In this document: piece after piece, positions 443 through 46,586 of the stretch
Layout: each line of letters starts with the position of its first letter
Position numbering within the stretch: the first letter of the stretch is position 1
Source of the DNA: Candidatus Atabeyarchaeum deiterrae
Lineage (GTDB): Archaea; Asgardarchaeota; Atabeyarchaeia; Atabeyarchaeales; Atabeyarchaeaceae
Assembly (NCBI GenBank): GCA_037310415.1
Contig: CP147780.1
Location: 2,560,001 to 2,624,000, forward strand
Reading direction: 5' to 3'
Length of the DNA stretch: 64,000 nucleotides
Notes under the pieces: model-generated
Databases searched by the model: none
Told to the model about the DNA's origin: nothing
What the model saw: the letters and a program-made list of their open reading frames with translations, nothing else
Made by a program: the position numbers and the translations under genes

Positions 443-2113
443 CTAATCCTCACATTTAGTCTCCTTCTCACCAGAGTCTGAACCCTTCTGATTTCTCCGG
501 TTCCAGGCTTCGCCCAAATGGCTATAGCTTGACTGAAGAACTTCCTCCTGCACTAGTTGCCTTCCCAGAAGCAAGGGGCGTTTACCCTTCCATCTTTCCT
601 GCAGCAAGTCCTTCATCTCGTTCATCAGGACTTCGGGTGACTGTTTCAACTCATCAGCAGCAATAGCAGCAACTTTCGGTATGCATGTGCAGCCTTGACA
701 TGGACCCATTGCTATCCTTGTTCGCCTTCTAACATCGTTCAACGTCTTTGCCCACTCGTTCCTTATTGAGTATCTGATTGCAGCCTCTGGAATTGATTCG
801 CAATTGCAGACTTCCATCTTGTACTGCGGGTTCTCTTGAGTGAGCATTAGAACATCACTCGCCTTTGTTCCATAGAGATATGCTAGCTTTGCCGCCATGT
901 GAGGATAAATCCCAAATGCTCCTGCAAGGCGTTCGACGTTTACTTCCTGTTCAGCGCCAATTAGCGGATCGGCTTGGGTTCTGCACTCGGTGCTTCTATC
1001 CAGCTTCTTGCAGATGAGGTCAGTCATCTTCTCCGCCATGATGCGGTAGAGGACGAGCTTTCCCCCTCCAAAGGACAGGAACCCTGAAACACCCGCCTTG
1101 CTTTCGAAGTCGATGATTTCGAAGTTTCGGGTGACCTTGTCTTCAGGGATACCGTATTGGTTGATCATTGGCCTCACGCCAGTCATGGTTCTTATGATCC
1201 TAGCTTTGCGTATCGATGGAATTGCTTTCTCCATTCCCATCATAAGGTACTCTACGTCGTCGTACGTTGTCTCGACCTCGTCAGGATCACAGAAAATATC
1301 AACCGCCGTCGTCCCAAGGATCGTGGTGTTCTCGTGTGGGAAGAGATAGGCGCGTCTCCCATCTATGCACTTGGCGTATATTCCAATATCTGATATTCTT
1401 CTGTCGAAGATCACATGGCTTCCCTTGTTGAGGCGGAGGGGATGTTCGAGTCCAGCCATTTTGGCTACTTTCGAGCCCCATGGACCGGACGCGTTCACAA
1501 CTATCTTGCCCTTTATCTCCCTGACCTCGCCCGAGAATCTGTCCTTAACTCTTACACCCGTGATGGTGTTACGTTCCCTCAGAATGTCAACTACTTCTGT
1601 GTACGTGAGGATCTGAGCACCATGCTGTTTCGCGTCGAGGGCATTCATGAGAGTGAGGCGGAATGGATCAATGAAATATTCTCTAATGTAGATCGCGCTC
1701 ATAATATTAGGGCTCAGCTTCGGTTCCAATCTAAGAGCCTCGTCAGTCGTCAGTGTTATGATCGGGTCGCCTTTTCGGAGTTCACTGTAACCATCGTACG
1801 CTGCCGTAAACAGTTTCCCTTGGTTTACCTCAGACTTGTCGAGCCCGACAAGCAATATAGGGGTGCTAAAAATGACATTCCTAGCGATTTTTGCGATTAT
1901 TGCTGATTCCGCCACGCAGAGTTTGACCATAGGCGGCTCCATGAAGTACTTTGGTCCAGCGGAGATCATTCCGGCACAGGTGGCAACAGCGCCTGAAGCG
2001 ATGTCATTCCTCTCTACAAGAACTGTCTTCAATCCTCGTTTAGCACAGTCTCTCGCGGTTCCAACTCCAGCACTTCCGCCGCCAATCACTATGACATCAA
2101 AAACATCGCTCAT
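443..2113 (-). CDS. glpA: Anaerobic glycerol-3-phosphate dehydrogenase subunit A (FAD-dependent, C-terminal BFD-like 2Fe-2S domain)
   Basis: VIVIGGGSAGVGTARDCAKRG FAD motif, NASGPW, GVRP, GGKL, and C-terminal VCNCE...RRRTRIAMGPCQGCTC typical of GlpA. Likely start ATG 2113 (ORF track 2146). Confidence 0.9.
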   Translation of the reverse strand: MSDVFDVIVIGGGSAGVGTARDCAKRGLKTVLVERNDIASGAVATCAGMISAGPKYFMEPPMVKLCVAESAIIAKIARNVIFSTPILLVGLDKSEVNQGKLFTAAYDGYSELRKGDPIITLTTDEALRLEPKLSPNIMSAIYIREYFIDPFRLTLMNALDAKQHGAQILTYTEVVDILRERNTITGVRVKDRFSGEVREIKGKIVVNASGPWGSKVAKMAGLEHPLRLNKGSHVIFDRRISDIGIYAKCIDGRRAYLFPHENTTILGTTAVDIFCDPDEVETTYDDVEYLMMGMEKAIPSIRKARIIRTMTGVRPMINQYGIPEDKVTRNFEIIDFESKAGVSGFLSFGGGKLVLYRIMAEKMTDLICKKLDRSTECRTQADPLIGAEQEVNVERLAGAFGIYPHMAAKLAYLYGTKASDVLMLTQENPQYKMEVCNCESIPEAAIRYSIRNEWAKTLNDVRRRTRIAMGPCQGCTCIPKVAAIAADELKQSPEVLMNEMKDLLQERWKGKRPLLLGRQLVQEEVLQSSYSHLGEAWNRRNQKGSDSGEKETKCED

Positions 2114-40060: not shown

Positions 40061-40837
40061 CTAGAAGAAGGCTTGGGGGTTCAGGGTTAACCCTTCACTG
40101 GTTATAACGTACGGTATGAGCTTAGTCGTGTGATAAGTCTCTCTTAAATGCTCAATCCGTAGATATGTTCTTGATTCATCCTTCTCGATTCTTCGTATCA
40201 TTTCAATACTGTTACCAGTCAACTGCTTGAGTGCTGTCTCGGCATGTGAGCCATGCATTCCCAGATGAGATATGAAGAGAGCAACCGCATTTCCCACAAG
40301 GTTGATTCGAACCACGAGACGGCGGAGAAGTCTGTAGACCTTTGGTAGGTCTTGTGTTGTGCTTAAGATTGGTGAGATTGAGTCTAGAACAATTCGAATA
40401 GCTGAGTTCTTGGGCGACATGGGACTCAGTTTCGTAAGCAGATTGTCAAAAACAGCGAACAGTTCATCAAGGTTGCCCGGGTTTTTCACATATGCTTCTT
40501 CCGAGAACGTTTGATCAGCGGTATCTGTGGCACCAGTGAACGCGTCGACTATGTGGAGTCTTCTCTTGGATGTATCCTTCGAAATGTAAGGGGAGATGTC
40601 CCAATTGAAGCGAATCATTCTCCGGCGTAGCTCTGAAGGCGGAAAATCAAAGACAACATAGAGAACATGGTCGTTGCGTTTGAGTCCCTCCCAAACAAAG
40701 TGTTCGCAGAAAATGCTTTTTCCGATTCCGGGGGGACCAATCAGGAGTACTGTTGAAGGCTTCAAAAAGCCTCCCTGCATCAGAGCATCTAGTCCTTCTA
40801 TGCCAACAGGGATTCTTTCGCCAATTCCAATGCTCAT
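40061..40837 (-). CDS. KaiC/RAD55-like RecA-superfamily ATPase (single domain)
   Basis: GIEGLDALMQGG, Walker A GPPGIGKS, Walker B RIVLDS, YVITSEGL. Confidence 0.9.
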   Translation of the reverse strand: MSIGIGERIPVGIEGLDALMQGGFLKPSTVLLIGPPGIGKSIFCEHFVWEGLKRNDHVLYVVFDFPPSELRRRMIRFNWDISPYISKDTSKRRLHIVDAFTGATDTADQTFSEEAYVKNPGNLDELFAVFDNLLTKLSPMSPKNSAIRIVLDSISPILSTTQDLPKVYRLLRRLVVRINLVGNAVALFISHLGMHGSHAETALKQLTGNSIEMIRRIEKDESRTYLRIEHLRETYHTTKLIPYVITSEGLTLNPQAFF

Positions 40838-41557: not shown

Positions 41558-43039
41558 CTAGCTCTTTTCCACCCAAGAGAATTTGTGCTGAAGTGCCGTC
41601 GGGTAGTAGAGTTTCCAGTCGTAGTCCACCTTAGTAAACCATTTGTAGAAAACACGTGGGTCAATGTAGCTCTTGAGGGACGTTCTTAGATTGTAATTCT
41701 TGGTTGCCTCCATGAGTTCTATCTTGATCTTCAACTCTCTGGCGCGCCTTTTCGACTTCTCATCCGCCTTCGTTTGAAGCGCTTCAAGCGTTCCTTTCTT
41801 CTTGGCGATGCTTTCTGCCCAGTTCTTGGGGAGCTGCTTCTTGTGGTTACACTCAATGGCCGCCTTCAGATTCGCCATGGTCGCAGCATACTTCTTGTCT
41901 ATGTCTGGGTCATCGCTGCGCACATTGGCATCCTCGAGGGATCTTGCGACAACGTTAGAAGCATGATAGGTTCTGAACACCTTGGCAGTGAGTCCCGGTA
42001 TAACTTTGCTCAGGAAGTTTTTCACATGGCTGGATCTGACTCCTTCGAAAATCGACGAACGTGCGTCACCAATAAACTCTCTCAGGTTGTCAATAGCTTC
42101 CGGTCGCAACTGCACCTCCTTTTCCCATTGTACTGAGTCTTTCCCCAAGAAATCGAATCTCACATAACCATTCTCTTGTATTTTCACATGATCAGGTCTC
42201 AGAGTAGTTGCGCCGACCGTGTCGGCCTCCTCCTTACTCTTCTCGTCGCCGACTCTCAACTTCAGCTCGTCTATCAAGTAACAGACAGTGGCTACTTTTC
42301 TTGTCATTAGATCTTCCGAAGTCAGGTTCTTGTAAATATGGTTTCTTAATTCATTGATCTTTTGCTCAAGTCTGGTCGCTTTGTTGAATTTCTTGATTTC
42401 TTGTTCTTGTTTTACGCCTACAGTGTCGGCAAGCCAAATGTATTTCACTTTGCGGCTGAGTCTGTCATCCCATTTTGCTATCCACATAGAATCCCGTTGC
42501 CAATCCCTCTTCCATGAACCTTCAGGGAGTTGTGCATCCGGAGATAGGTTTAGTATTATGTCTTCCTGACTGGGTCCTTGCTTCCATTTGCCTCGGAGGG
42601 GATGTTTTCCTCGGCCCATGAATATGCACGACGGTTCTCCGACATAGTTTCCAAGTTCTACCTTGGCTCCGTCAAGAGCTGCGAAACCATAGTTCTCTCT
42701 GTTCTGCTCCCGTAAAGTCTTTCGGTCAGCGGCTTGCTTCTTTTTCTCTTCCTTGCTCATACTCGCCTTAACAAGTTTCTCTCTCTCAACGGTCCTCTGG
42801 ATCTCAGAAAAATCAATGTCATTTGGGGTTATGGTTTCTCCAACTCCAAGTGCCTCTGAAAAATCTTGGAAGAAGTTCTTGACGAATATCTCATCCTGCA
42901 CGTATACGGTTCCGAGCTTTTTCACCCAGGCTACTGCCATCTCCTCTTGACGCGGGGTGAGTTTGACCTTCTTACCTCTGACAATTATGGAGTAACCTTT
43001 GGGCTCATACCTAGGGAGTATTATGCCATTATGGATCAA
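41558..43039 (-). CDS. DNA topoisomerase IB (eukaryote-like)
   Basis: HNG, FMGRGKHPLRGKWK, catalytic pentad LRVGDEK / FLGKDS / KVFRTY / CNH / SYIDPR. Start may lie a few codons upstream. Confidence 0.95.
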   Translation of the reverse strand: MIHNGIILPRYEPKGYSIIVRGKKVKLTPRQEEMAVAWVKKLGTVYVQDEIFVKNFFQDFSEALGVGETITPNDIDFSEIQRTVEREKLVKASMSKEEKKKQAADRKTLREQNRENYGFAALDGAKVELGNYVGEPSCIFMGRGKHPLRGKWKQGPSQEDIILNLSPDAQLPEGSWKRDWQRDSMWIAKWDDRLSRKVKYIWLADTVGVKQEQEIKKFNKATRLEQKINELRNHIYKNLTSEDLMTRKVATVCYLIDELKLRVGDEKSKEEADTVGATTLRPDHVKIQENGYVRFDFLGKDSVQWEKEVQLRPEAIDNLREFIGDARSSIFEGVRSSHVKNFLSKVIPGLTAKVFRTYHASNVVARSLEDANVRSDDPDIDKKYAATMANLKAAIECNHKKQLPKNWAESIAKKKGTLEALQTKADEKSKRRARELKIKIELMEATKNYNLRTSLKSYIDPRVFYKWFTKVDYDWKLYYPTALQHKFSWVEKS

Positions 43040-45242: not shown

Positions 45243-45325
45243 ATACTGAAAAATAGGAAAATGACGGAGTATGCAATACGGATTCGCAAGTGGCCAATGA
45301 ATCCGACTATTGTCTCTAGTTTATT

Positions 45326-45670
45326 TTACTCCGTCTTCTTCGCTTTCTTAGCTGGTTTCTTCTTTTTCACTTTGGATTCTTCTTCCTTCTCAAGCTCCTC
45401 GAATGGAACCGGTGGCGGAGTTCTGAACATTGTCCAGCCTATCCATATTACGATAAAGAGCACCAGAGTCAATGCCAGCCACATTGGAAACGCAAGGAAC
45501 CAATACCACGAAGGTACGATTTCGCTCTCCAGTATGTGTGGGAACCAATACAGGATGGAAGGCCAGAAACGATGGAAGATCGGGATGATGAAGACATTGA
45601 TAGTGTAGTAGAGCCAAATGAGTATTCCGAAGAGGAAGAATATGAATCCGAGAATTCTATCCTTTGCCAT
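45326..45670 (-). CDS. Small two-TM membrane protein resembling DPM2/PIG-P
   Basis: DRILG...YYTINVFIIP first helix; PSWYWFLAFP...WIGWTMFRTPPP second helix; Lys-rich tail. Confidence 0.6.
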   Translation of the reverse strand: MAKDRILGFIFFLFGILIWLYYTINVFIIPIFHRFWPSILYWFPHILESEIVPSWYWFLAFPMWLALTLVLFIVIWIGWTMFRTPPPVPFEELEKEEESKVKKKKPAKKAKKTE

Positions 45671-46151: not shown

Positions 46152-46586
46152 TCACTTCTTCGTAGGCTTCTTGGCTGGAACTCTCTCCTTTTCCTCCTCC
46201 TTCCCTCTCTCCTTCTCTACTTCAAGTATGGCCTCAGCAGCTCTACCGAGTTCACTTATCAGAATCCCTATTTTTGCCTCCCGCCTCGCCAATAACGTTA
46301 TTGCACTGTGGTCTCCTACTCTTCCTATGACGATGTATCCATCTGTGCATTTGACGAAAACTTGTTCGACTCCCCCTAGCTGCAGTACGTCGGCACTGAG
46401 TTTTCCTAAGTTGAGTAGGGTAGCTGTTATCGCAGCAACTACATCCTGAGATGAGTCTCCGTGGAGAGCGTTTGCTATCATCATTCCGTCGTAGCTTACA
46501 AGCGCTGCACCTTCTATCTCAGCCGTGCGACCTGTGATTTCTTTCAGAGCAAACCTGATCTTCTCCACGTCAACTGGCACGTCCAT
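46152..46586 (-). CDS. Roadblock/LC7 (MglB-like) domain protein
   Basis: IEGAALVSYDGMMIA, VAAITATLLNLG, LGGVEQVFVKCTDGYIVI, AKIGIL. Confidence 0.92.
   Translation of the reverse strand: MDVPVDVEKIRFALKEITGRTAEIEGAALVSYDGMMIANALHGDSSQDVVAAITATLLNLGKLSADVLQLGGVEQVFVKCTDGYIVIGRVGDHSAITLLARREAKIGILISELGRAAEAILEVEKERGKEEEKERVPAKKPTKK

Follow-up and report, generated by a model that had tools for sequence, protein, structure and literature searches.

The window analysed here, a 64,000-nucleotide stretch of the genome of Candidatus Atabeyarchaeum deiterrae, contains a small gene whose 114-residue product is, judged by sequence comparison, an archaeal representative of the superfamily that split in eukaryotes into DPM2 and PIG-P. 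DPM2 is the regulatory subunit of eukaryotic Dol-P-mannose (Dol-P-Man) synthase and at the same time a component of GPI-GnT, the complex of which PIG-P (Gpi19) is a subunit. The genome that encodes the archaeal protein consists of a single 2.76-Mb contig, is 97% complete and falls into a family-level group shared with Atabeyarchaeia-1.

The gene is an ATG-start open reading frame of 114 codons on the reverse strand (ORF list and translation). Its features are listed below, each with the evidence for it in brackets.

45326..45670, reverse strand: coding sequence of the 114-residue DPM2/PIG-P-like protein with two transmembrane (TM) helices, stop codon counted in the coordinates (ORF list, translation, family conservation, Pfam PIG-P and DPM2 matches)
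45647..45664, reverse strand: N-terminal cytosolic motif K-D-R-I-L-G, residues 3-8 (family consensus KDKxxG; G8 invariant in the 57-sequence alignment)
45578..45655, reverse strand: TM helix 1, about residues 6-31, with the conserved YYT at residues 21-23 (nucleotides 45602..45610) (AlphaFold2 helix 2-31, pLDDT 88-96; consensus xYT)
45512..45577, reverse strand: extracytoplasmic loop, residues 32-53, variable in length and sequence (alignment columns 34-95 mostly gaps or variable; pLDDT 67-79)
45422..45511, reverse strand: TM helix 2, residues 54-83, with P62 and W-I-G-W-T-M at residues 76-81 (AlphaFold2 helix 54-83, pLDDT 90-97; P62, W76 and G78 invariant or nearly so; BLASTP alignment to plant PIG-P over residues 53-105)
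45329..45421, reverse strand: membrane-exit TPPP (residues 84-87), EELE and a charged cytosolic tail predicted to be helical (residues 90-111), ending in KKTE (P85 nearly invariant; consensus TTPPPxPxEELE; AlphaFold2 helix 90-111)

The AlphaFold2 model, calculated from the family alignment, has a mean pLDDT of 85 and consists of the two TM helices, the less confident loop between them and the charged C-terminal helix. The protein would thus form a hairpin whose two ends are probably both cytoplasmic, as in DPM2 and PIG-P, given the lysine-rich tail and the basic N-terminus. The motifs to which an earlier, sequence-only reading of this DNA had drawn attention, namely DRILG (residues 4-8), YYTINVFIIP (21-30), PSWYWFLAFP (53-62), GWTMFRTPPP (78-87) and the terminal KKTE, are all present in the translation, and its spacer counts need correcting: DRILG and YYT are separated by 12 residues and not by 11, FP and GW by 15. 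An overlapping open reading frame on the forward strand (45261..45608, 115 amino acids) was rejected as a gene, being a low-complexity antisense shadow with runs of F and S.

Relationship to PIG-P and DPM2

Both Pfam models recognise the protein, each below its gathering threshold. The PIG-P model (PF08510) aligns residues 6-107 to profile positions 4-94 of 121 with an E-value of 1.3e-7 (31.9 bits, threshold 39.3), and the DPM2 model (PF07297) aligns residues 4-83 to positions 2-71 of 75 with an E-value of 0.01 (16.5 bits, threshold 27.3), the two-helix hairpin spanning nearly the full DPM2 profile when the Pfam alignment is read together with the AlphaFold2 helices. The PIG-P match stops at profile position 94 and leaves out the conserved segment at the cytosolic C-terminus of that model (positions about 95-121), in place of which the protein has a low-complexity charged helix as its tail. 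Among the 57 full-length family members that make up our alignment A1, PIG-P is matched by 35 and DPM2 by 28. When whole genomes were scanned, 30 of the 201 Asgard genomes carried a family locus above the curated DPM2 cut-off, the best scoring 54.3 bits, twice the gathering score. For PIG-P, 67 of the 201 gave a match at E<=1e-3 and one a locus above the model's own cut-off; the 14 control genomes, scanned at the same threshold, yielded no match to either model. Full-length orthologs of the Odin group reach 45-54 bits on DPM2 and 33-35 bits on PIG-P, one of them scoring 54.2 and 33.4.

A direct connection to eukaryotic sequences comes from phmmer, which, with the 114-residue protein as query against 1.84 billion proteins, retrieved a PIG-P of Dioscorea at a library-wide E-value of 4e-4; this match is a true PIG-P, scoring 103 bits on PF08510. 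By BLASTP the similarity to plant PIG-P (E 5e-12, 37% identity over 57 residues) lies in TM helix 2 and the TPPP exit. Profile-profile comparison by hhalign of A1 with 25 named plant PIG-P sequences (alignment A3) gave a probability of 97.5%, an E-value of 5e-12 and a score of 71.7 over 74 columns covering both helices. The compositional bias of TM segments was treated as a possible confound, and the comparison was repeated with reversed alignments (score 17), with 40 global column shuffles (at most 16.5), with 60 shuffles inside local blocks of 12 columns, which leave the hydrophobic segments where they are (at most 38.1, none reaching a probability of 90%), and with an unrelated archaeal TM hairpin, the C-terminus of an AglJ-like enzyme family (13-18). 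Neither the protein nor the family profile matched DPM2, PIG-P or PfDPMS when used to search PDB sequences, only archaeal proteins came back from a profile search aimed at named eukaryotic homologs, and no structure of the DPM complex or of GPI-GnT was found in the literature searched.

Because the Pfam and genome scans, the phmmer search and the hhalign score of 71.7 against at most 38 in the controls agree, homology to the DPM2/PIG-P superfamily is well supported at the sequence level, and the protein is a genuine relative, its similarity not a product of TM composition. The link to the DPM2 side is supported by a single line of evidence, the Pfam model, and that to the PIG-P side by the profile-profile comparison as well. 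An unrelated hairpin, for example a holin-like one, that merely resembles the two proteins by chance in its hydrophobic helices could be argued from the Phage_holin_3_6 model (PF07332), which 22 of the 57 members match below threshold, from one NCBI record named 'phage holin family protein' and from a fold search without specific result; yet these holin matches of the family (best E 1.2e-5) are weaker than its matches to PIG-P and DPM2, the 114-residue protein itself has no holin match even at E<=10, and the gene is single-copy and near-universal in Asgard genomes and lies outside a prophage context. Against a chance likeness stand also the hhalign controls, the empty control genomes and the direct phmmer path to plant PIG-P, so that we regard such an explanation as highly improbable and both chance resemblance and a holin function of the archaeal family as essentially excluded. 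The sequence-only reading had proposed that the protein could be a homolog of DPM2 and PIG-P unless profile matches were lacking and generic TM composition accounted for the similarity; significant matches exist and composition does not account for them. A structural comparison, which it had also proposed, was uninformative: generic helical hairpins were all that came back when the PDB was searched by Foldseek and the ESM Atlas by shape.

In its small size, its two TM helices and the G-x12-YYT arrangement of TM helix 1 the protein resembles DPM2, whose curated cut-off is passed by Asgard orthologs. It differs from DPM2 by a longer inter-helix loop, by the WIGWTMxTTPPP exit motif and by a charged tail of roughly 30 residues; moreover, human DPM2 acts through DPM3, whereas the search of Asgard genomes yielded no DPM3 partner. 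With PIG-P it shares the hairpin and a strikingly similar second helix and exit (YW-x-LA-x-P ... G ... M-x-TPPP), but it lacks the conserved C-terminal cytosolic segment and its genome lacks detectable PIG-A-specific, PIG-C and PIG-H/Q-type machinery. Mutation of Phe21/Tyr23 in TM helix 1 of DPM2 abolishes the association with DPM1, Tyr23 of the human protein being essential (PMC10154465). Y21-Y22-T23 is present in the first helix of the archaeal protein, and xYT is the family consensus. By offset arithmetic, a tyrosine of the archaeal YYT may correspond to human Tyr23. The terminal KKxx, suspected from the outset of being coincidental, proved to be so: the tails of the family vary between acidic and basic without conservation, which rules out an ER-retrieval-like signal. 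Unlike eukaryotic DPM2, the archaeal protein resides in a cell without an ER, where the motif would be meaningless.

The archaeal family and its gene neighbourhood

Searched exhaustively with phmmer, a library of 1.84 billion representatives yielded 134 family clusters at E<=1e-3. The nearest relatives of the 114-residue protein, with 57-66% identity, belong to Atabeyarchaeia and Njordarchaeia, and at least 477 loci were confirmed by pattern search and tblastn in species-representative genomes of Atabey-, Thor-, Hermod-, Baldr-, Odin- and Loki-type Asgard archaea, Bathyarchaeia, Methanocella and Nitrososphaerota. The WIGWTMxxTPPP signature, which the sequence-only reading attributed to other small archaeal membrane proteins as well, indeed occurs there far above chance, in these clusters and loci. 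The idea that the protein is a signature specific to Asgard archaea has to be given up with the same data, the family being widespread in archaea beyond them. Within the Asgard archaea the family profile matches 182 of 201 genomes and 83 of the 86 of high quality, mostly as a single copy.

The 114-residue protein matches the family profile with an E-value of 2.5e-37 and can be aligned end to end with the 56 other members of A1. Members share the N-terminal KDKxxG with its invariant G8, the xYT of TM helix 1, a loop of variable length, P62 of TM helix 2, the exit sequence WIGWTMxTTPPPxPxEELE and a charged tail, which is acidic in most of them and basic in the clade of the 114-residue protein. 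The latter has all hallmarks of the family: the KDKxxG-type N-terminus, both helices, the exit sequence and the charged tail. The names given to members in public records either say little or are incorrect ('hypothetical', 'transcriptional regulator', 'phage holin', 'PTS IIC'), and one ESM-Atlas cluster with archaeal members bears an automatic DPM2 name.

Some lineages depart from the simple pattern. In one Asgard lineage (f13, loci L106-L115), whose nearest named relative is a MAG of the Kariarchaeaceae, Heimdallarchaeia (P0060), two paralogs of the family are consistently found, one above the Pfam DPM2 cut-off with 31-33 bits and the other divergent, with a tail of the form WIGYTM..T-EP..TYEEAYE. 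That the two are counterparts of DPM2 and PIG-P is unsupported, as both match plant PIG-P in profile comparison with similar scores (70.8 and 58.5) and have a higher score with each other (124.8); by sequence the pair looks like a lineage-specific duplication and not like the eukaryotic DPM2/PIG-P split. Heimdall-type and some other members carry a C-terminal fusion to a helix-hairpin-helix (HHH_5) or DUF4332 domain (P0060, P0079, P0102, P0092 and the reverse-strand ORF 1333-1785 of L108), which pairs a membrane hairpin with a module of the nucleic-acid-binding type. In a further Asgard lineage (f9/g31, e.g. G064:C90:2662-2961 and G120:C76:31389-31709), ORFs of about 260 amino acids located apart from the family locus show weak PIG-P matches (20-27 bits, profile positions 10-113) and may represent a second, longer PIG-P-like protein.

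Genes for sugar activation recur beside the family gene. Its convergent neighbour at 26 loci of the Thor type is a gene for a bona fide archaeal GlmM (549 bits, cut-off 439), at Hermod- and Loki-type loci it is divergent from a gene resembling Man-1-P guanylyltransferases, 50-160 nucleotides away in most, and at six Bathyarchaeia loci a short sugar-1-P nucleotidyltransferase adjoins it on the same strand, 2-61 nucleotides away where measurable. In most Bathyarchaeia an AdoHcy hydrolase gene lies upstream and is the commonest neighbour there (28 loci). The neighbours in the window itself, an MFS transporter, UPF0175 and Roadblock/LC7, are uninformative and include no glycosylation genes.

Three other genes of the window, all on the reverse strand, deserve mention. 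The Roadblock/LC7 (MglB-like) protein is encoded two genes away (46152..46586) and a KaiC-type ATPase further upstream (40061..40837), neither with an apparent link to the family gene. At 41558..43039 lies a gene for a DNA topoisomerase IB of the eukaryotic type, which scores 215 bits on Topoisom_I and 161 bits on Topoisom_I_N and has the C-terminal domain too.

Glycosyltransferases in the genome

Seven GT2 and seven GT4 genes are present in the genome, most of them in an island about 110 kb from the family gene. This island, outside the window at about 2,465,000-2,495,000 of the contig, comprises at least four GT2 and six GT4 genes, among them a GT2 of 308 amino acids (the L082 ORF) that resembles AglJ, PpgS and Dol-P-hexose synthases, has two C-terminal TM helices and finds its best PDB match in the Pyrococcus DPMS 5MLZ. 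A second GT2 (the L085 ORF, 303 amino acids) is ArnC/DPMS/GtrB-like and has no predicted TM helix. Neither PIGA (PF08288) nor GPI2/PIG-C (PF06432) was detected at E<=1 in this genome, a single contig with a completeness of 97%, and no convincing DPM3 was found in it or in the 201 Asgard genomes, which is weak evidence of absence given that the DPM3 search matched nowhere at all. Since no PIG-A-specific, PIG-C or DPM3 signature was detected, membership of the 114-residue protein in a GPI-GnT of this organism is excluded. The search for partner enzymes that had been proposed from the sequence thus ended with an AglJ/DPM1-like GT2 in hand and with no PIG-A-specific domain; likewise, of the suggested connection to the ER pathways, the part concerning dolichol-type glycosylation is retained and the part concerning GPI synthesis is dropped.

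The best homologs of the L082 enzyme elsewhere in the Asgard archaea are shorter proteins of 233-250 amino acids without TM helices (246 in Odin, 233 in G037, 250 in the Heimdall-like G053) and match human-type DPM1 in architecture, while the homolog of Atabeyarchaeia-1 has one C-terminal TM helix, as has yeast-type Dpm1. AglJ/DPMS-like GT2 genes were located at L117 (ORF 1351-2091, reverse strand, in the Odin-type G001), L118 (1492-2193, forward), L120 (1474-2226, forward) and L116 (1357-2148, reverse), and architectures with no, one and two TM helices all occur within this one phylum.

The type-III Dol-P-Man synthase of Pyrococcus furiosus (PfDPMS, PDB 5MLZ) is similar in concept, with pairs of TM helices beside a GT2 catalytic domain, and a related GT2 exists in the present genome; it differs in that the archaeal hairpin studied here is a separate gene, and no sequence similarity was detected between the family profile and PDB chains including 5MLZ. 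In topology, the fused PfDPMS has two pairs of TM helices as the counterparts of DPM2 and DPM3 (PMC5526996). Homology of the family hairpin to the C-terminal TM hairpin of the AglJ-like enzyme itself was considered and rejected (hhalign probability 1%).

Proposed function and significance

We favour, with a probability of roughly 0.6 and by analogy with the eukaryotic relatives, the explanation that the DPM2/PIG-P-family hairpin serves as an accessory subunit of a lipid-directed glycosyltransferase, and that its most likely partner would be the AglJ/DPM1-like Dol-P-hexose synthase. The non-catalytic, V-shaped hairpin would pack against the membrane-associated enzyme, as its eukaryotic relatives are thought to do, and would position or stabilise it at the membrane surface; perhaps it also helps to present the polyprenyl-phosphate acceptor. 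Because no DPM3 is detectable, we propose that the contact which DPM3 makes on the cytosolic side in humans might here come from the C-terminal charged helix. In favour of a role in glycosylation speak the sugar-activation genes beside the family gene in three separate arrangements and the AglJ/PpgS/DPMS-like GT2 of the genome. Several observations count against this explanation: the protein itself stays below both Pfam gathering thresholds, its gene lacks glycosylation neighbours in the window and lies far from the glycosyltransferase island, DPM3 was not found in the 201 Asgard genomes, the sugar-activation neighbours fit activated sugars generally and not Dol-P-Man specifically, and the family gene is present whether the DPMS-like enzyme has no, one or two TM helices, so that no simple pattern of compensation emerges. 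A more far-reaching version, which we offer as a tentative and rather unlikely conjecture, is that Asgard archaea possess a split Dol-P-sugar synthase of the human type, in which a TM-less DPM1-like catalytic subunit is joined by a separate DPM2/PIG-P-like hairpin that does the job of DPM3 too; eukaryotic DPM1/2/3 and the hairpin subunits of GPI-GnT would then go back to a single accessory protein of archaea, one that was already the partner of a peripheral glycosyltransferase before eukaryotes arose.

The homology could be as real as we think and the partner a different one, namely a UDP-GlcNAc-using peripheral GT4 enzyme of the PIG-A/MshA class or the first GlcNAc-transferring step of a lipid-linked glycan, in a PIG-P-like role. 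The 114-residue protein scores higher on PIG-P than on DPM2, the GlmM of the Thor lineage belongs to the UDP-GlcNAc pathway, the genome has seven GT4 genes, and in an AF3 model of human GPI-GnT the V-shaped hairpins PIGP, PIGY and DPM2 seat PIGA, the peripheral catalytic GT4 subunit (PMC12182360). However, neither a PIGA-specific domain nor a PIG-C/GPI2 signature was detected in the nearly complete genome, the C-terminal part of the PIG-P profile (positions 95-121) is unmatched, the DPM2 cut-off is passed in far more Asgard genomes than that of PIG-P (30 against 1 of 201), and the neighbours in Hermod/Loki-type archaea and Bathyarchaeia are more like Man-1-P guanylyltransferases; we consider this alternative a serious rival, though an unlikely one. 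A function outside glycosylation altogether, for instance as a small subunit of general use in the membrane or as a stabiliser of some other complex, with the eukaryotic roles acquired later, would agree with the lack of glycosylation context in the window, with the AdoHcy hydrolase as commonest neighbour in Bathyarchaeia (28 loci) and with the Heimdall-type HHH/DUF4332 fusions, which do not point to glycosylation. Against it stand the sugar-activation genes that recur beside the family gene in three arrangements and two phyla and the fact that both eukaryotic descendants serve lipid-directed glycosyltransferases, and we hold it to be improbable.

The family was called little-noticed in the sequence-only reading, which is not quite the case. 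A dated-duplication study published in Nature in 2025 states that DPM2 and PIGP come from a family that originated in archaea and was duplicated before LECA, and its supplementary table gives a single tree for PF07297 with 'Asgard' descent and one duplication (2.06-2.88 Ga) leading to the LECA nodes of DPM2 and PIGP (PMC12872463). A pre-duplication status of the archaeal protein agrees with this published tree. The evolutionary link is thus already in print at survey level and the novelty of our result is modest; a paper characterising the archaeal protein was not found in the literature searched. What we add is a well-controlled confirmation of the homology and a concrete, testable partner hypothesis, and not a new discovery.

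DPM2 and PIG-P, tiny subunits about which little is understood, belong to two glycosylation enzymes of the ER that are essential, and human disease results when they are defective (DPM2-CDG, PIGP deficiency). The archaeal counterpart, near-universal and single-copy, offers a simpler system in which to ask what such hairpins do. Taken together with the TM-less DPM1-like enzymes of several Asgard lineages, it suggests that eukaryotic Dol-P-Man synthase may owe its split architecture to inheritance from archaea and not to a eukaryotic invention.
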